Origin: Draconibacterium sp.
GTDB lineage: Bacteria > Bacteroidota > Bacteroidia > Bacteroidales > Prolixibacteraceae
Assembly: GCA_041393215.1 (NCBI GenBank)
Contig: JAWKKP010000018.1
Span: forward strand, 20,675-84,674
Direction of reading: 5' to 3'
Length of the DNA stretch: 64,000 bases
Part shown: positions 9,417 through 24,655 of the stretch, piece after piece
How the letters are laid out: every line of letters starts with the position of its first letter
Numbering within the stretch: the first letter of the stretch is position 1
Translations under genes and position numbers: made by a program
The notes under the pieces: model-generated
What the model was told of the DNA's origin: nothing
What the model saw: only the letters and a program-made list of their open reading frames with translations
Database searches by the model: none

Positions 9417-10799
9417 TTAATTTGGTTCTGGATTTGGAACAAAAACTTCATTGGCTTCGGATGCCCCGAATTGAATAACCAACCCGACATAATCCCAGTT
9501 AACGCCTCTTATAATGATATCTTCGCCTGCAGCTCCCCTGCGTTTCAGGTCATGAAGCCGATAGCCTTCGCCCATTAATTCCAATCGTCTTTCGGTGTGG
9601 GCTGCATTTAGTATAGCTACATTGTCTGCTGTTTCAAGCAGGTTTTTCGAAGAACTTCCATAAGCTCTCTCCCTTATGTCGTTAACTTCTTTAATTGCTG
9701 CCGGTTTATCTACTGACGATTTTAGCATTGCAGCTTCTGCCTTTAAAAGTTTTAATTCGGAAAGCCTGATTACAGGTACCACCGGGAATTCATAATTGAA
9801 TTTGGTCATCGCAATGTATTCATTGTCGGCCCCCGGGTTAAAAACCTGGTACCAATTTTCGGTTCTTTTATCGCCTGCATTTGCTTTAATTACGTTTGTA
9901 TATACGTCAGGCGAAATACGGATGTTTGGAATATTTGTACCGTCAGAACGAAAAACGCCGAAATCTCCACCTACTCTTTTCCCTGATACTTCGTTCGATA
10001 CAAGTTTAAAAACAGCATCATCGCCCGGATTGTAATCTTCAAAGTCGGTTGCAAATGTAAAACTTCCACTTTCGATAACTTCAGAGGCCTTTGCAAACGC
10101 ATTGTCGTAATCATGCATCTGGAAATATACCTGGGCTAAAGCTCCTTTTGCTGCCCATTTGGTTGCATAAACATAACCTGAATTTTCAGCAGGTAAATCA
10201 CTTTCAGCATCGGTTAAATCTGAAATAATTTGCTGGTAAACCTCAGCAACGGTATTACGGGGAAGCAATTCAACCTTCGTGTTGGTTTTAATAACTATTC
10301 CCGGATGACTATTGTCTGAAGTGTAACCATAAGGTTGAGCAAACAAACGAACTACAGCAAAGTGAGCAATTCCCCTCAGGAATTTGGCTTCCGCTGTCAT
10401 TCGGGTTGCGTCGTCAGCACTTAGGCCAGAAACACTTTCTAAATTCTCGAGCACGAGATTCGAGCGCAAAATACAGATGTACGCTTGTTCGTAGGATTCG
10501 TTATCGGTAAAATAACCAGTGGTGTAACGTTTATATATATTTACCATTTCATCGGTAATACCATCTCGCAGCACCATATTATCACCAAGCAATTCCGAGG
10601 TACGTTGAAAGCGGCCGCCATAGAATCCATTCACAACATCGTATGCCGCATTTAACAGTTCCTGTAAATCGTTTTTTGTTTGAAGAGCGTCTGATTCCAG
10701 GATTACTCCTTCATCAACTGGGTCAATTGTAAGCAAGCTTTCACAACCTGAAAACAGAACTCCAAACAAGAATATAATTGCTAAATATTTATTTTTCAT
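9417..10799 (-). CDS. susD: RagB/SusD nutrient-binding lipoprotein
   Basis: Lipobox FSGC; AEAKFLRGIAHFAVVRLF, VIRLSELKLLKAEA and ERRLELMGEGYRLHDLKR motifs. Confidence 0.95.
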   Translation of the reverse strand: MKNKYLAIIFLFGVLFSGCESLLTIDPVDEGVILESDALQTKNDLQELLNAAYDVVNGFYGGRFQRTSELLGDNMVLRDGITDEMVNIYKRYTTGYFTDNESYEQAYICILRSNLVLENLESVSGLSADDATRMTAEAKFLRGIAHFAVVRLFAQPYGYTSDNSHPGIVIKTNTKVELLPRNTVAEVYQQIISDLTDAESDLPAENSGYVYATKWAAKGALAQVYFQMHDYDNAFAKASEVIESGSFTFATDFEDYNPGDDAVFKLVSNEVSGKRVGGDFGVFRSDGTNIPNIRISPDVYTNVIKANAGDKRTENWYQVFNPGADNEYIAMTKFNYEFPVVPVIRLSELKLLKAEAAMLKSSVDKPAAIKEVNDIRERAYGSSSKNLLETADNVAILNAAHTERRLELMGEGYRLHDLKRRGAAGEDIIIRGVNWDYVGLVIQFGASEANEVFVPNPEPN

Positions 10800-10811: not shown

Positions 10812-13800
10812 TTAAAATGTTATGTTCAAACCTAAGGTTCCAATTTTTTCCTGGGGAGGTGTGAGGAAACTTACGTTAGCACTCATGTTACGGTCTCTTG
10901 GATCATCATGATCTCTGGCTACTTCGGGGTCAGCTCCAGGGTATTTGGTAAAAGTCAACAAGTTTGTTCCCGTTACAAAAACCCTCATCGATGAAATTCC
11001 AACTTTATGTAATCCTTTCGGAGGAATTGTATAAGATAGAGTAAGGTTTTTCAACCGAAGATAATCTCCATCGAATAGCCACATTGTTGAGTTAAACCAT
11101 TGTTCCCCGTCTTTTCCGTAGGTTGATCCTTCTCTTGACATACGCGGATATTTGGCTTCATCGCCGGGTTGTCTCCAACGATCAAAAATATCGGTTCTGA
11201 AATTCCAGTCTGAAGCCAGCCCCATCTGTCTTTTCGATGATGAGTCATAAATTTGAGCACCAACACTAAAAGTAAACAAGGCGCTCAATTCCAATCCTTT
11301 ATAACGGAATGTATTGGTAAAACCTCCTGTAAAGTCTGGAATTACCTTTCCTGCAGGGACAGCGTAGCCTTCTTCTCCTTCGAATTTGTATGTTTTAGTT
11401 TCGTTTCCTTCTTTATCAAGATAAATTGGGCGTCCGTCTGCCGGGTCGATTCTGGAGAATCTTACCAACCTGTTTGTTCCAACCGGATAACCCTTTAAAA
11501 TACGGGTATCGTTTGTTCCTCCACCGATTTCTTCTGTGGTTAAACCACCAACATCGGTTACTTCGTTTCGCAATGTTGAAATGTTAAATTGCGTATCCCA
11601 CTGAAAATCGCCGACCAGGTTTTTTGTTGTAATGCTAAATTCTAAACCTTCATTTTCGATGGTAGCAATGTTTTGCCATTGACTCCCATAACCCGATGTG
11701 GTTGTAATTGCCACATTAATGAAAACATCTTCCGATTTTTTAAAGAAATAGGCCGCCTCGGTTGCAATACGTCCTTCAAAAAGGCGTGCTTCAAATCCAA
11801 GGTCGTAACTTTTTGTTGTTTCCCATTTTAAATCCGGATTTGCAAATTTTTCCGGATAGCGGATTGGCAAGTCGTTATATTTTTGCGATTCAGTTGTTGA
11901 AAGTCGGTAAGTTCCGATGTGTTCATAGTTTGGAATACTTGAGTTCCCGGTAATCCCGTAACTGGCTTTTAGTTTCAGGAACGACAACCACTTACTGTCA
12001 CTCAGGAAATCTTCTTCCGTCATAATCCAGCCTAAAGCGAACGTAGGGAAATATCCGTATTTGTTGTTTTTCCCGAATCTTGAAGAACCGTCTGTACGCA
12101 ATGTTGCCTGGGCGATGTAGCGTTCTTTATATAAATAGTTCAGTCTTCCGAAGAAGCTGATAAAACGCCAGTGTTCATCCCTTAATTTTTCAGTGCTTTC
12201 AACATTTTCGCGGCTTTCATCCCAATTTGTATTCGAACCGGTTGTTAAAGATTCCTGAAGTTCGTGTCCAAGCATGGCTTTCAGATCGTGGTCTTCATTT
12301 GCAAGCTTGAAATCATAATTGGCAACTACGGTGTAATTCCAGTTATATACTTCCCGGTTATTTTCCCAACGGTAATCTTTGCCTGATGATCTCATTGCGC
12401 CCTGTTCGAGCCCAACATTTTTGAAATCCATGTAATCAAGGGCTCCGTTAAGGTTAAATGAAAGTTTTGTTGTTGGAGCATAGTTAATATTCAAACTATT
12501 AATAGTACGGAATTCCTTGTTAGTTTCGTCGCGAAGTTTATTTACCATTACAGGGTTTCCAGAATTTCCGCCACCCCTGAAGAAGGTACCATCGTTATTG
12601 TAAATAGGATAAATTGGCAAAGCGTATCCCATTGCAGAACCTAAACCACCGTCCCAGGGGTTTCCCGGAAGCGCGGTATTAGTTTGAGCGACAGAAGAAG
12701 AAAGGGCCGCATTAAATTTTTGTGAAGGCGTAAAGTTAAGGTTCAGGTTACCATTATTACGTTTCATGTCGTTATCAACCAGGTATGATTGGTTATCGGT
12801 TAAAGAACCTCCAACACGAGCGATTAAATTTTTAGCGATACCAAAGTTGGCGCTTAAATTATACTCTTGTTTAAATCCGGTTCTTGTAACTTCATCCCAC
12901 CAGTCGGTGTCGTTTTGTTTTGCTCCTTCCCAAGTCAAACCTCCAGGTAAACCGGTTGGAATTCCTGTATTTCCGTCATTTTCCCATGCTTCCTGGTACA
13001 GTTGTAACCATTCTGCCGAGTTCGTCATGTTCACTTTTTTTGTCGGTCCACTGACACTAAGCTTCGTGTTAAACTCAATTTTCAGGGCACTTCCTTTTGC
13101 TTTTTTGGTAGTAATAATTACAACCCCGTTAGCTCCTCTGGAACCGTAAATACCCGTAGCCGAAGCATCTTTTAAAACTTCAATGGATTCAATATCGTTT
13201 GGGTCGATAGATGACAGAGGATTTAAGTTCATACCTCCGGTTCTGCCTCCTAAACCAAAAATGTCGTTGGTAATTGGAATCCCATCAACAACATATAAAG
13301 GATCTCCGGCAGCGTTAATTGAAGCGACCCCCCTTACACGGACAATAGCACCGGAACCAGCCATTCCACTCCCGGTGGTTACACTTACTCCCGGTGCCTG
13401 CCCAGCCAGTACACCTTCGAAAGAAGATGTAAGCTTACTTTCGATATCCCTGCTGTCAATTTTAGCAATGGAACCGGTTATTTCCCGTTTTGTCTGAATA
13501 CCATAGCCTACCACAACAATTTCATCCAGTTGCTCCGTGTCAACGTTAAGAGCGACATTAAGAGTTGTTGTTTCGCCAACAACAAATTCGGTAGTTTTGT
13601 ACCCAATATATGAGAATTGAAGCGTTGCCCCCTGTTCTACATTTATTGAATACACTCCCTCAAAGTTTGTGATAGCTCCTTGCGTCGTCCCTTTAACTAT
13701 TATAGTTACACCTGGCAATGATTCACCGCTTTGTGCGTCGGTAATTTTACCAGTAATTGTTTTTAATTGCCCATAACTACTTGTGAAAGCAAGAATGGCA

Positions 13801-13844
13801 ACCAAAAACAAAAATGCTTTAAGGTTTTTTTGTATAATCCTCAT
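10812..13844 (-). CDS. susC: SusC/RagA TonB-dependent transporter
   Basis: N-terminal carboxypeptidase-regulatory-like domain; DIESIEVLKDASATGIYGSRGANGVVIITTK; DLKWETT; C-terminal Phe. Confidence 0.97.
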   Translation of the reverse strand: MRIIQKNLKAFLFLVAILAFTSSYGQLKTITGKITDAQSGESLPGVTIIVKGTTQGAITNFEGVYSINVEQGATLQFSYIGYKTTEFVVGETTTLNVALNVDTEQLDEIVVVGYGIQTKREITGSIAKIDSRDIESKLTSSFEGVLAGQAPGVSVTTGSGMAGSGAIVRVRGVASINAAGDPLYVVDGIPITNDIFGLGGRTGGMNLNPLSSIDPNDIESIEVLKDASATGIYGSRGANGVVIITTKKAKGSALKIEFNTKLSVSGPTKKVNMTNSAEWLQLYQEAWENDGNTGIPTGLPGGLTWEGAKQNDTDWWDEVTRTGFKQEYNLSANFGIAKNLIARVGGSLTDNQSYLVDNDMKRNNGNLNLNFTPSQKFNAALSSSVAQTNTALPGNPWDGGLGSAMGYALPIYPIYNNDGTFFRGGGNSGNPVMVNKLRDETNKEFRTINSLNINYAPTTKLSFNLNGALDYMDFKNVGLEQGAMRSSGKDYRWENNREVYNWNYTVVANYDFKLANEDHDLKAMLGHELQESLTTGSNTNWDESRENVESTEKLRDEHWRFISFFGRLNYLYKERYIAQATLRTDGSSRFGKNNKYGYFPTFALGWIMTEEDFLSDSKWLSFLKLKASYGITGNSSIPNYEHIGTYRLSTTESQKYNDLPIRYPEKFANPDLKWETTKSYDLGFEARLFEGRIATEAAYFFKKSEDVFINVAITTTSGYGSQWQNIATIENEGLEFSITTKNLVGDFQWDTQFNISTLRNEVTDVGGLTTEEIGGGTNDTRILKGYPVGTNRLVRFSRIDPADGRPIYLDKEGNETKTYKFEGEEGYAVPAGKVIPDFTGGFTNTFRYKGLELSALFTFSVGAQIYDSSSKRQMGLASDWNFRTDIFDRWRQPGDEAKYPRMSREGSTYGKDGEQWFNSTMWLFDGDYLRLKNLTLSYTIPPKGLHKVGISSMRVFVTGTNLLTFTKYPGADPEVARDHDDPRDRNMSANVSFLTPPQEKIGTLGLNITF

Positions 13845-13944
13845 TTTAAATTTTATTAGTTTGTGAATTTTACAACGTTTTAGTTAAACTTTAATACTTA
13901 ATTTTAATAGGCAAGAAATCAACAAATTACAAGTACTTCTTAGT

Positions 13945-13952
13945 TAACTTTG
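13945..13952 (+). promoter_or_regulatory. Bacteroidota sigma70 -7 element (TAACTTTG) pointing away from susC
   Basis: Exact TAnnTTTG match; no clear -33 TTTG. Confidence 0.45.
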
Positions 13953-14019
13953 GCTAAAATCCTGTGCGAATCTAAAAAAAATGTTAAGAAATTGTAACGC
14001 TTTTTAACATACTAATTAA

Positions 14020-14045
14020 TGCAAACGTTTGCGGTTACGTTTGCG
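14020..14045. promoter_or_regulatory. LacI-type operator (GCAAACGTTTGC palindrome) plus a tandem half-site
   Basis: Perfect 12-bp palindrome at 14021-14032 with central CG, an extra ACGTTTGC at 14037-14044, and an identical core at 16293-16306. Confidence 0.8.
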
Positions 14046-14195
14046 CTCAATATGTTATAAAACAGGTAGTTACTGGTGGGGCGTGTTCGCTTGAAAAATC
14101 AATGCGAAAAATTTACGAAAACATAAGTTTAAAGTTATTTTTGAAGGCACTATTTTTTTGAAAGTATAAAGTTCTTGTAAACCAATCTTGGGCAT

Positions 14196-15152
14196 TTGAA
14201 GAGTGAAAACGAAATACCAGCCAAACCGTTTATAAAATGGGCAGGAGGAAAAGGCCAGTTATTGGATAAGTTTCTTTCATTTTATCCCGATGAATTGAAA
14301 TCGGGCAAAATCAATCATTATTATGAACCTTTCATTGGGGGCGGCGCTGTTTTTTTCGATGTTGTTCAGAAATTCAATATTAATAAAGCATTTCTATACG
14401 ACATAAACGAAGAACTGGTACTTACTTACAAGGTTATTCAAAAAGATGTATCTAAACTTATCGGGACACTCGATTCAATTCAAAAGGAATATTTCAAACT
14501 AAATGAAACTGAAAAAACAGAATACTTTTATACTACCCGATTAATTTTCAACGAGAACAGGTTGTCAACAAACTATTTAAAGTATTCCGAAAACTGGATC
14601 TTAAGAGCTGCCCAAATTATTTTTTTAAATAAAACCTGCTTTAATGGATTATTCAGGTTTAATGCCAAAGGAGAATTCAACGTTCCGGCCGGAAAATATA
14701 AAAATCCGAAAATTCTGGACGAGCAGAATCTGCTGAAAGTTTTCGAAATTTTGAAAATAGCAACTATCAAAAAGGCCGATTTTATGGCAGTGGAAAAAGA
14801 TATAGTTGAAAATTCATTTGTTTATTTTGACCCACCTTACCGGCCACTGAATGCAACTTCGAGTTTTACGGCTTACAGCAAACATAAATTCGAAGACGAA
14901 GAACAAACAAAACTGGCGCAGTTATATTCCAGGCTGGATAAAAAAGGTATTAAGCTGATGTTGAGCAATTCGGATCCGAGAAACAGCGATCCAAACGATG
15001 ACTTTTTTGATATAATTTATAAAGATTTCAATATTAAAAGAATTCCGGCTACAAGAATGATAAATTCAAAAGCATCGAAAAGAAATGCAATAAACGAAAT
15101 TGTGGTAACTAATTATATTTCAAAAACATGTCATACGCAAACTAAATTATAG
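14196..15152 (+). CDS. dam: Dam-family (D12 class) N6-adenine DNA methyltransferase, orphan
   Basis: KPFIKWAGGK, YYEPFIGGGAVFF, NKTCFNGLFRFN and FVYFDPPY motifs; TTG start; no adjacent restriction endonuclease gene. Confidence 0.92.
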   Translation: MKSENEIPAKPFIKWAGGKGQLLDKFLSFYPDELKSGKINHYYEPFIGGGAVFFDVVQKFNINKAFLYDINEELVLTYKVIQKDVSKLIGTLDSIQKEYFKLNETEKTEYFYTTRLIFNENRLSTNYLKYSENWILRAAQIIFLNKTCFNGLFRFNAKGEFNVPAGKYKNPKILDEQNLLKVFEILKIATIKKADFMAVEKDIVENSFVYFDPPYRPLNATSSFTAYSKHKFEDEEQTKLAQLYSRLDKKGIKLMLSNSDPRNSDPNDDFFDIIYKDFNIKRIPATRMINSKASKRNAINEIVVTNYISKTCHTQTKL

Positions 15153-15247
15153 CTGAATTAGCTTAAATTGGGAATATATATTATTTTTATAAATGTTGAT
15201 AAACTAACAATTAAAATCACCCGCCTTTTAAGAATAAACCTGGAAAA

Positions 15248-16264
15248 ATGAAAAACGGATTAGTTACAATAAAAGATATTGCACGTGAGCTAAAGATTTC
15301 TCCGTCAACTGTTTCCAGAGCTTTGAAAAATCATCCTGACATTAGTGAAGAAACCAAAAAGGCAGTTAACGATCTGGCTGCAAAATTAAATTACCAGCCA
15401 AATGCGGTTGCACTAAGTTTAAAGCAACGACGAAGGAGCACAATCGGCGTGATTATTCCTGAGATTGTTCATTATTTTTTCTCATCCGTTATTAGTGGTA
15501 TTGAAGATGTTGCTTATGATGCGGGTTATAATGTTATCATTTGCCAGTCGAATGAAAGATATGATCGCGAAGTAGCGAATGCCCGAACCTTGCTGGCAAA
15601 TCGAGTTGATGGTATTTTGGTATCGGTGTCGAAAGAAACCAGGGATTTTAGCCATTTTCATAATTTAAAAGACAACGGTGTGCCCCTGGTTTTTTATGAT
15701 AGGGTAATTCCGGATTTTCAGGCTGATCAAATCATCATCGACGATCTTGATGCTGCTTACAGGGCTACAAAACATTTAATCGAAGGGGGTTTCAGCGAAA
15801 TTTTTCATTTTGCAGGACCGCAAAATCTGCTCATTGGCCAGCAACGCAGAGACGGTTATTTGAAGGCGTTGAAAGAGACTGGATTAGAAATCGTTAACAG
15901 TCGGATTATTGAAGCCGATAACTTTGAAAAGGCACGCTTAACTGTCTTAAATATTCTTGAAAACAAACTTCCAATAGACGGAATATTTGCCGTAAACGAT
16001 TTAACCGCAATTGGGGCGATGCAAACACTTCAGAAAAGGGGAGTTAAAATTCCGAATGAAGTTGCTGTCGTGGGTTTTTCCGATGGCCGGTTATCGGGTA
16101 TTACTGACCCGACATTAACTTCTGTCGATCAACATGGATATGAAATGGGCTCAATTGCAACGGAGTTATTGCTAAAAAGAATATTCTCGGAAAACAGGGA
16201 TTATCCTTTCGAAACAAAAGTCCTGAATGCGAACCTGATCATAAGAGGTTCATCGGTCCGCTGA
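15248..16264 (+). CDS. LacI-family transcriptional regulator (probable maltose/starch regulator)
   Basis: VTIKDIARELKISPSTVSRAL helix-turn-helix, hinge YQPNAVALSL and periplasmic-binding-type sensor domain. Confidence 0.95.
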   Translation: MKNGLVTIKDIARELKISPSTVSRALKNHPDISEETKKAVNDLAAKLNYQPNAVALSLKQRRRSTIGVIIPEIVHYFFSSVISGIEDVAYDAGYNVIICQSNERYDREVANARTLLANRVDGILVSVSKETRDFSHFHNLKDNGVPLVFYDRVIPDFQADQIIIDDLDAAYRATKHLIEGGFSEIFHFAGPQNLLIGQQRRDGYLKALKETGLEIVNSRIIEADNFEKARLTVLNILENKLPIDGIFAVNDLTAIGAMQTLQKRGVKIPNEVAVVGFSDGRLSGITDPTLTSVDQHGYEMGSIATELLLKRIFSENRDYPFETKVLNANLIIRGSSVR

Positions 16265-16292
16265 AAAAAAATTCAAAAAAATTTTTTTTCTC

Positions 16293-16306
16293 TGCAAACG
16301 TTTGCA
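16293..16306. promoter_or_regulatory. LacI-type operator TGCAAACGTTTGCA
   Basis: Perfect 14-bp palindrome upstream of the MFS-pgmB-GH65 genes. Confidence 0.82.
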
Positions 16307-16361
16307 ACAATACTTTTTCACAAAAAATGCTTGTTATTAGGGGCTTACGCCGACTTTGAAA

Positions 16362-16394
16362 TTTGGATTATTCATTTTTTGTGTTTTATATTTG
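16362..16394 (+). promoter_or_regulatory. Bacteroidota sigma70 promoter (-33 TTTG, 21 nt, -7 TATATTTG)
   Basis: Canonical consensus and spacing upstream of the MFS gene. Confidence 0.75.
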
Positions 16395-16492
16395 TACAGG
16401 CAAATCAATATTTTCAACTTCTTTTTTAACTCGCGAACATCCAAAACGCTGAAATATTAATTTTAGCAAACCAACATTTTAACATAGTTACT

Positions 16493-24574: not shown

Positions 24575-24655
24575 ATGATGGTTTGGTTTTTGGTTTAGTT
24601 TAGGTTTAGGTTGATTGAGAAAAGGCTGGTTGTTGAACTAGCCTTTCTTCTTTTT
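24575..24655 (+). other. G/T-rich GGTTT(A/G) repeat tract followed by a terminator (3'UTR or sRNA candidate)
   Basis: ATGATGGTTTGGTTTTTGGTTTAGTTTAGGTTTAGGTTGATTGAG, then an 11-bp stem AAAGGCTGGTT/AACTAGCCTTT (24621-24646) and a U-tract. Confidence 0.5.

Follow-up and report, generated by a model that had tools for sequence, protein, structure and literature searches.

The closest described relatives of the gene reported here are the adenine methyltransferase DpnM, from the DpnII system of Streptococcus pneumoniae, and the Dam methyltransferase of Escherichia coli. DpnM methylates GATC, and its gene shares a cassette with those for a second methylase and the DpnII endonuclease. E. coli Dam is solitary in the chromosome and has MutH and SeqA as its partners. 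Solitary methylases of the Dam type are common. To our knowledge, housekeeping Dam systems do not deplete GATC, and depletion of such a site is usually read as active restriction pressure. The orphan Dam of the Halobacteria (cHG W) is a solitary gene of patchy distribution that is found where GATC is frequent (Fullmer et al. 2019; PMC6471742).

The gene described here, dam, lies in a 64,000-nt stretch of DNA (hereafter the window; contig C18, positions 20675-84674) of a Draconibacterium sp. genome, G000, which comprises 5.6 Mb in 66 contigs with a G+C content of 37.9%. Its product has in common with DpnM the alpha-class motif order, the FxKWxGGK and DPPY motifs, and the FNGLxR recognition loop. 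However, nothing resembling the second methylase or the endonuclease of the DpnII cassette is adjacent to it, and the genome has no DpnII-family gene. The product belongs to the same family as E. coli Dam, with the GATC-contact positions conserved, and both genes are solitary in the chromosome; E. coli has MutH, whereas G000 has no MutH (PF02976). E. coli, as far as we know, does not avoid GATC, whereas G000 has half of the expected GATC sites. The orphan Dam of the Halobacteria is likewise patchy within its clade, and the frequency of its motif likewise co-varies with its presence, but the direction is opposite: the Halobacteria carry Dam in GATC-rich genomes, and the genus studied here carries it in GATC-poor ones (PMC6471742). 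Compared with the PADLOC oMTase and MTase_II models and the NCBI Dam annotation, the gene itself shows no difference. The existing NCBI and PADLOC annotation is silent on its fixed site in the maltose locus, on the depletion of GATC, and on a protein of the family DUF7004. We read dam as a working solitary methyltransferase that belongs to the Dam/DpnM family and most likely acts on GATC sites across the whole chromosome, and we place the probability of this reading at about 0.75.

The dam Gene and Its Predicted Product

14196..15152, forward strand: dam, solitary Dam-family (alpha-class, D12) N6-adenine DNA methyltransferase, 318 aa, TTG start

The 318 codons of dam are open from the TTG in a single uninterrupted frame. 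The translated frame matched PF02086 (MethyltransfD12) with an E-value of 1.3e-56 and 192.6 bits (cut-off 22), covering profile positions 1-253 of 253, and TIGR00571 ('dam') with 269.4 bits (cut-off 114.85). A preliminary description of the window had assigned these coordinates to an intact Dam-family methyltransferase, and the two full matches agree with that assignment. The motifs follow the alpha-class order, with FIKWAGGK (K14), motif I (EPFIGGGAVF) near residue 45 and motif IV at D212-P-P-Y215. Motif I and DPPY align with DpnM and E. coli Dam, and all of the motifs are intact.

The closest solved relative was M.DpnIIA (DpnM, PDB 2DPM), with an E-value of 3e-52 over the full length, and the second was E. 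coli Dam (PDB 2G1P), with an E-value of 6.5e-30. In the alignment, residues K9, N120, L122, R124 and P134 of E. coli Dam, which we take to be the GATC contacts in the 2G1P structure, correspond to K14, N150, L152, R154 and P164 of the dam product. Y119 of E. coli Dam corresponds to F149, the same residue as in DpnM. The product is predicted to be a real and complete Dam-family (D12, DpnM-like) N6-adenine methyltransferase. The conserved contact positions, together with the homology to DpnM, point to GATC, which on this comparison is its likely target.

In PADLOC, the best model for dam was oMTase PDLC03735 ('orphan methyltransferase'; 3e-99), and MTase_II PDLC03294 matched at 2e-88. As a kind of gene, dam is ordinary, and its close relatives are publicly annotated as 'Dam family site-specific DNA-(adenine-N6)-methyltransferase [Draconibacterium sp.]'.

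Organization of the Locus

10812..13844, reverse strand: susC-like TonB-dependent transporter with Plug and CarboxypepD_reg domains, left border of the dam site
14020..14044, no strand assigned: LacI-family operator from a motif scan, palindrome TGCAAACGTTTGCG (14020-14033) plus half-site CGTTTGC at 14038
14136..14143, forward strand: Bacteroidetes-type -7 promoter-like box TATTTTTG, after GTTTAAAG (consensus match only)
15153..15247, forward strand: dam-lacI spacer, 95 nt, containing the lacI promoter-like box
15248..16264, forward strand: LacI-family regulator of the maltose locus, 338 aa, with PF00356 and Peripla_BP domains
16293..16306, no strand assigned: second operator from a motif scan, perfect palindrome TGCAAACGTTTGCA, upstream of the MFS-HAD-GH65-GH13 operon

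The dam gene is divergent from susC, with susD and SusE/F-like genes further on the susC side. To the right of dam and co-oriented with it are lacI, an MFS gene, a HAD gene, a GH65 gene and two GH13 genes. The orientation shared with lacI, the 95-nt gap between the two genes and the position of dam downstream of a LacI operator had all been described before, and each was confirmed. The lacI orthologues are 69-89% identical across the genus; the susC of the window shares no more than 31-33% identity with its counterparts in two other dam-bearing loci, L005 and L027.

The operator palindrome TGCAAACGTTTGC(G/A) occurs in only two copies in the 5.6-Mb genome, at 14020 and 16293. The first copy lies within the susC-side part of the intergenic region, a stretch of ~240 nt that is conserved across the genus, and it is invariant in 11 aligned intergenic regions.

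The TATTTTTG box lies 52 nt before the dam start codon. It is also found upstream of dam in the metagenome-assembled genome (MAG) L005 and in G056, with near-variants in G009, G050 and G051. Within the spacer, a lacI promoter-like box, TATTTTTA, is present at 15182-15189, 66 nt ahead of the lacI ATG (consensus match). Of the six dam-bearing loci, five have the corresponding TAYTTTTA box at -63 to -69, and the sixth, G007, has it at -37. No terminator-like hairpin was found in the 95-nt spacer, the fold of which was no better than that of shuffled sequence, so that read-through from dam into lacI is possible. The layout suggests that dam forms a separate transcription unit ahead of the lacI promoter; it would be transcribed from its own Bacteroidetes-type box, ~100 nt downstream of the LacI operator, and may run on into lacI. 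We also considered that dam had captured the lacI promoter, having been inserted between lacI and that promoter. This idea was dropped because lacI keeps its own conserved promoter-like box inside the spacer.

The preliminary description had offered, as one of two readings, a carbon-source-responsive methylase. LacI would then control dam via the upstream operator, and the methylome would follow maltose or starch. Such control would fit a gene that shares an intergenic region with the operator and starts 162 nt downstream of it, is co-oriented with lacI without a terminator between them, and keeps this position in six genomes. However, the operator centre lies ~110 nt upstream of the -7 box of dam, and the two do not overlap. 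The operator-bearing intergenic regions (13845-14195 and 16265-16492) hold no GATC, as had been noted, and methylation feedback there is thus ruled out. The absence of the site from these regions stands, but chance suffices to account for it: the probability of finding none in 579 nt is 0.33 given the 122 sites in the 64 kb of the window, and the local composition predicts about 0.9 and 0.5 sites in the two regions.

Distribution and History of dam

The clade of dam orthologues was present in 10 of the 41 genus genomes, with 61-69% identity to the dam of the window; the dam of MAG L005 was 78% identical. The arrangement of reverse-strand susC, dam and lacI was found in six genomes (G000, MAG L005, G007, G043, G050 and G051). 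The comparison of synteny proposed in the preliminary description thus places dam at the same site in several relatives and not in one strain only. In at least 13 genomes, an orthologous lacI faces susC directly, with no dam between them; the ~240 nt of intergenic sequence and the operator are conserved in all of these.

In a tree built from lacI and the MFS gene, G000, L005 and G007, which were the dam-bearing genomes then included, fell into different, well-supported subclades. The grouping of these three as one clade was rejected by the AU test (p = 7e-55), which implies either several losses or several gains of dam. A tree of lacI DNA with all six dam loci required at least three state changes by parsimony. 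The resolved subclades of the dam tree are those of the lacI tree: G000 groups with L005, G043 groups with G050 and G051, and G007 stands apart in both. The basal branches of both trees are poorly resolved.

The Dam-less genomes within the dam-bearing clade (G021, G010, G012 and G004) have intergenic regions of 419-526 nt, as against 341-355 nt. The lacI-proximal intergenic part in G004 and G010 weakly matches the dam-lacI spacer, and a similar box was seen by eye in G021. No remnants of dam were detected in the Dam-less intergenic regions, where homology consists of roughly the first 236 nt and the weak spacer matches. A recent horizontal import of dam was rejected, because its GC3 is typical for the G000 genome and its subclades follow those of lacI. 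The history that we favour is that dam would be an old resident of the susC-lacI gap, vertically inherited and repeatedly lost. Repeated gain at one site is a possible alternative, given only three parsimony changes on the lacI tree.

The sister of the whole genus dam clade is the dam of G033, a genome of another family, in which the dam stop codon is overlapped by a gene for a 163-aa PD-(D/E)XK protein (PF20472, 1e-51). In G040, a DpnII-like cassette combines dam with a similar nuclease and with a second methylase that has a DPPY motif. These relatives support a restriction-modification ancestry, in which dam would descend from the methylase of a DpnII-like system.

The dam gene was also found where the maltose genes are missing, which can be seen from a landmark at the right-hand end of the maltose locus:

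24577..24655, forward strand: conserved non-coding element of about 75 nt, with a GGTTT-rich stretch, a GC hairpin and a T-run

This element sits after the last maltose gene, is present in 38 of the 41 genus genomes, and belongs to no Rfam family. In G003, G016, G018 and G056, dam is followed by the element 113-445 nt later, and the maltose operon is absent there. G003, G016, G018 and G009 have no orthologous lacI (best match of 43-48% identity), and the dam locus of G056 has no lacI. No operator was identified within the fetched flank upstream of dam in G003, G016, G018 and G009. In G056, a maltose intergenic remnant with a shortened single operator copy is kept upstream of dam, and an HTH-containing ORF occupies the place of susC. 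Several lineages have thus kept dam with no maltose block around it.

The retention of dam without an adjacent maltose operon speaks against a role in carbon regulation. A member of the LacI regulon would have an operator that overlaps its promoter or lies just beyond it on the downstream side, and would keep this association wherever it occurs, and dam was found to do neither. It persists without an orthologous lacI in five genomes, adjoins the post-maltose element in four of those five, and in four has no operator upstream; conversely, 13 genomes run the same locus with an orthologous lacI and without dam. With its own conserved box as well, dam gave no support to control by LacI, which we consider highly improbable.

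Search for a Partner Nuclease

No nuclease, transposase or tRNA gene was found near dam, the neighbours of which are susC and lacI, and no tRNA gene is present anywhere in the window. This is in keeping with the earlier observation that dam has no endonuclease, transposase or mobile-element marks beside it. Searches of the G000 genome for the DpnII (PF04556), MutH/Sau3AI (PF02976) and PDDEXK_11 (PF20472) families returned no member, and no GATC nuclease of known families was found in this genome. As a control, the PF02976 search of the E. coli genome gave a match. A decayed nuclease beside dam was considered and rejected, as tblastn with the PD-(D/E)XK protein of G033 against the genome and all of the loci returned only G033 and a fragment in G040. 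The dam flanks of different genomes had no repeats in common except the conserved downstream element, and an Rfam search of the window gave no match.

GATC Frequency

The G000 genome contains 9507 GATC sites, with an observed/expected ratio of 0.55 under a second-order Markov model and of 0.49 when the expectation is taken from base composition. The ratios for TCGA, AGCT and CATG in the same genome were 0.83-0.93. The preliminary description had regarded GATC as common in the genes of the window; the genome-wide ratio of 0.55 contradicts this.

For comparison, 20-60 kb was sampled from each of 22 other genus genomes; 60-kb resamples of G000 had a standard deviation of ~0.06. The GATC observed/expected ratio was 0.24-0.59 in the genomes that carry an intact Dam, whatever its lineage (n = 11), and 0.57-0.98 in those without an intact Dam (n = 12), with a mean of 0.77 in the latter, which is a mild depletion too. 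Across the 23 genomes, the two groups differed for GATC (Mann-Whitney p = 5e-5, a value that overstates independence because the genomes are related), and did not differ for CATG, GTAC and TCGA. The data contain about three independent contrasts, namely G000 against G021, G050 and G051 against G012, and G007 against G023 and G019. Within the genus, depletion of GATC tracks the presence of Dam, as a correlation. Carrying a Dam goes with an approximately two-fold depletion. Given the saturation of synonymous sites between these species, the carriers must still be maintaining this depletion, under some present pressure on GATC. No GATC cluster resembling an origin-like site was found; the only significant clusters, which are the top ones, fall inside coding repeats.

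On the simplest reading, the methylase would still protect against a GATC-directed activity, and would not be a carbon-responsive regulator. Within one genus, the carriage of Dam goes with the loss of about half of the GATC sites, with no known GATC nuclease present. In practical terms, the Dam status of a Draconibacterium strain should predict which DNA preparations transform it.

DUF7004 as a Candidate Partner

The depletion of GATC and the co-occurrence of an unlinked gene for a DUF7004 protein suggest that dam may not be truly partnerless.

Contig C6 of G000, 392595-393080, unlinked to dam: DUF7004 homologue, 161 aa, beside a transaldolase gene

In G001 and G035, a Dam gene converges with the gene for a 174-aa DUF7004 protein (PF22539), and the G000 homologue is 50% identical to this protein. 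A DUF7004 gene adjoins a Dam gene in four genomes in total, being convergent with it in G001, G035 and G057 and in tandem with it in G255. The transaldolase neighbourhood of the G000 gene is shared with two other Prolixibacteraceae genomes.

Within the genus, a Dam-type gene, intact or broken, is carried by 13 of the 14 genomes with DUF7004. DUF7004 was present in 13 of the 18 genomes with a Dam-type gene and in 1 of the 23 without one (Fisher p = 6e-6). The carriers comprise eight of the ten dam-clade genomes, five genomes with another Dam lineage (one of these Dam genes being broken) and one genome with no detected Dam. Across the order, DUF7004 scored over the cut-off in 7 of 251 genomes, from six families. 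Dam scored over the cut-off in all seven, whereas it did so in 74 (29%) of the 251 overall; G057 and G255 have Dam and DUF7004 side by side. The GATC observed/expected ratio was at most 0.63 in all 12 sampled genomes with DUF7004, as it was in genomes with either gene, and at least 0.69 in all 10 sampled genomes with neither Dam nor DUF7004.

The DUF7004 family has invariant acidic residues, an EENK motif and a basic KKRxKRLG helix. Its AlphaFold model is confident (pLDDT 90.9) and consists of three short strands followed by six helices. A fold search of this model against the PDB gave no match to a nuclease or any other structure (best E = 0.84, TM 0.33). The sequence had no match in PADLOC, NCBIfam or the PDB, and the one paper found to mention the family does not bear on what it does.

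Dam and the unlinked DUF7004 could together form a chromosomally fixed, split GATC system, in which DUF7004 would act either as a nuclease on unmethylated GATC or as a reader of the methylated site. The two genes would be co-inherited and co-lost across the Prolixibacteraceae, with GATC kept at half of its expected frequency. We put this forward tentatively, with the odds against it. Two genomes do not follow the pattern. G050 has dam, has no DUF7004 by HMM, and yet has a GATC ratio of 0.32, the second-lowest of those sampled; DUF7004 as the sole cause of the depletion is weakened by this genome. G055 has DUF7004, no detected Dam, and a GATC ratio of 0.57. These exceptions make DUF7004 a lead and not an explanation. 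It is nonetheless a concrete and cheaply testable candidate, either for a new restriction-enzyme fold or for a new reader of methylated DNA.

If DUF7004 were a small enzyme with a new fold that cleaves or nicks GATC sites lacking methylation, Dam and DUF7004 would be a split restriction-modification pair; the cutting would keep GATC rare and would make dam indispensable. The adjacency of the two genes in four genomes, their co-occurrence in the genus and in the order, and the separation of the GATC ratios between genomes with DUF7004 and genomes with neither gene are all consistent with such a pair, as are the invariant acidic residues, the EENK motif and the basic helix of the protein. The confident model, however, resembles no nuclease or other solved fold, the sequence matches nothing in the three databases, and both G050 and G055 go against a strict pairing. 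Furthermore, dam and DUF7004 are both at conserved chromosomal loci, and such loci are unusual for restriction systems. A cutting activity for DUF7004 is, on balance, doubtful.

The same co-occurrence and adjacency would also be expected of a housekeeping pair, with DUF7004 as a reader of methylated or hemimethylated GATC and a functional analogue of SeqA or MutH, in replication timing, repair strand discrimination or gene control. Vertical inheritance, conserved loci and purifying selection are common to both genes; MutH is absent from G000; and DUF7004 is largely helical, with a basic helix. Depletion of GATC is, however, not known from housekeeping Dam systems, and the significant GATC clusters lie in coding repeats and not at an origin-like site. 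The comparison with the haloarchaeal orphan Dam, which is found in GATC-rich genomes, points the same way (PMC6471742). The DUF7004 model has no fold match to SeqA or MutH, and most members of the genus have neither Dam nor DUF7004, so that the pair is dispensable. We regard a housekeeping role of this kind as unlikely.

Selection on dam and Further D12 Matches in the Genome

The dN/dS of dam was 0.06-0.11, with dS above 2 (saturated) even in the closest species pair. Three further matches to D12 methylases were present in G000, on contigs C11, C26 and C65. The match on C11 is a C-terminally truncated Dam, located by inspection among relaxase-, coupling protein- and ParA-like genes, and the match on C26 is distant. 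C65 (1970 bp) contains a near-identical second allele of dam and is 98.5% identical to positions 14168-16136 of the window. The 29 differences between the two all fall in 14182-15013, which corresponds to dam and the 14 nt upstream of it, and none fall in the 1.1 kb of lacI. Within dam, 18 of the differences are synonymous and 9 are non-synonymous.

These data bear on the other reading of the preliminary description, a neutral insertion left from a restriction-modification system. Its restriction-modification part is upheld by the relationship to DpnM and by the arrangements in G033 and G040; its neutral part is not. A methylase left over from a dead restriction system and drifting without function would be expected to have no linked nuclease, to be patchily distributed, as dam is at 10 of 41 genomes, and to have family relatives in restriction-modification cassettes. 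It would not be expected to keep such a low dN/dS over saturated synonymous divergence, to retain all of its motifs, to persist where its neighbours are gone, or to be linked with the frequency of GATC, and the excess of synonymous changes in the second allele, 18 against 9, also speaks against drift. We find a functionless relic scarcely credible. Purifying selection and the retention of dam where the maltose operon is absent instead suggest that dam does something that the cell needs, other than maltose regulation. A methylase that resembles a stray insertion is thus held at one chromosomal site under purifying selection. The second allele on C65 may represent a second copy of the gene or a second strain.

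The second dam allele and the apparently exchanged susC/susD cassette

A second allele of the solitary Dam-family methylase gene (dam; window 14196-15152, plus strand) was identified on a small contig of the same genome.

C65:1-1970, second dam allele, the counterpart of window 14168-16136

The two sequences differ at 29 positions, all of which (29/29) lie either within dam or in the 14 nt that precede it, with 18 differences being synonymous and 9 non-synonymous. The 1.1 kb lacI part of the contig showed no differences from the window. Three readings fit the contig: a recombination tract, a second copy or a second strain.

On the other side of dam lies the susC/susD cassette.

10812-13844 (susC) and 9417-10799 (susD), both minus strand, susC/susD cassette

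The window's susC shares 31-33% identity with the susC of other dam-bearing loci (L005, from a MAG, and L027), and 75% with that of the relative G023. Conservation extends over the intergenic region and the part of the locus on the side of lacI. The cassette has apparently been exchanged at the maltose locus.

LacI operators and the remnant locus of G056

Both LacI operators lie approximately 95-115 nt upstream of the nearest putative Bacteroidetes -7 box, with no overlap between operator and box at either site (window 14020-14143 and 16293-16394). This spacing means either that the true promoters lie at other sites or that the LacI-family regulator acts at a distance. At the G056 dam locus (L114), the operator is reduced to one GGCAAACGTTTGCGC, and what remains of the intergenic region of the maltose locus is adjoined by an ORF in the expected susC position.

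L114 (contig C171 of G056) 1000-1200, ORF ending in an HTH-like segment

A conserved element and a candidate partner protein

A conserved non-coding element follows the last maltose gene.

24577-24655, plus strand, element of approximately 75 nt

The element comprises a GGTTT-rich stretch, a hairpin and a T-run, and was found in 38 of 41 genus genomes; no matching family was present in Rfam. In four relatives, dam lies a short way upstream of the element, whereas the Dam gene next to it in G005 and G054 is of another lineage and has the opposite orientation.

The proposed unlinked partner of Dam is encoded outside the window.

C6:392595-393080, minus strand, DUF7004 (PF22539) protein of 161 aa

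Its distribution across the genus and order is nearly confined to genomes with Dam, and its gene is immediately adjoined by dam in G001, G035, G057 and G255. The fold was predicted with confidence, and the predicted model matched no structure in the PDB.

Dam relatives and other D12 methylases

Two Dam relatives adjoin a small PD-(D/E)XK nuclease (PF20472).

L017 (G040), Dam relative with nuclease
L030 (G033:C147:4500-5986), Dam relative with nuclease

Both nucleases carry the motif ECKxQQVAGSVDEKL, and in G040 a second DPPY methylase comes next. The gene layout resembles that of DpnII, although the nuclease belongs to another family.

Two further D12 methylases were found in the window's own genome.

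C11:176923-177648, minus strand, C-terminally truncated Dam (241 aa) with 42% identity to the Dam of the window
C26:76621-77535, plus strand, distant D12-class methylase (62 bits)

The truncated gene is surrounded by genes that, judged by inspection, resemble those for a relaxase, a type IV coupling protein and ParA, and its surroundings look like a conjugative element. The distant methylase gene overlaps the end of a 467-aa ORF without assigned function.
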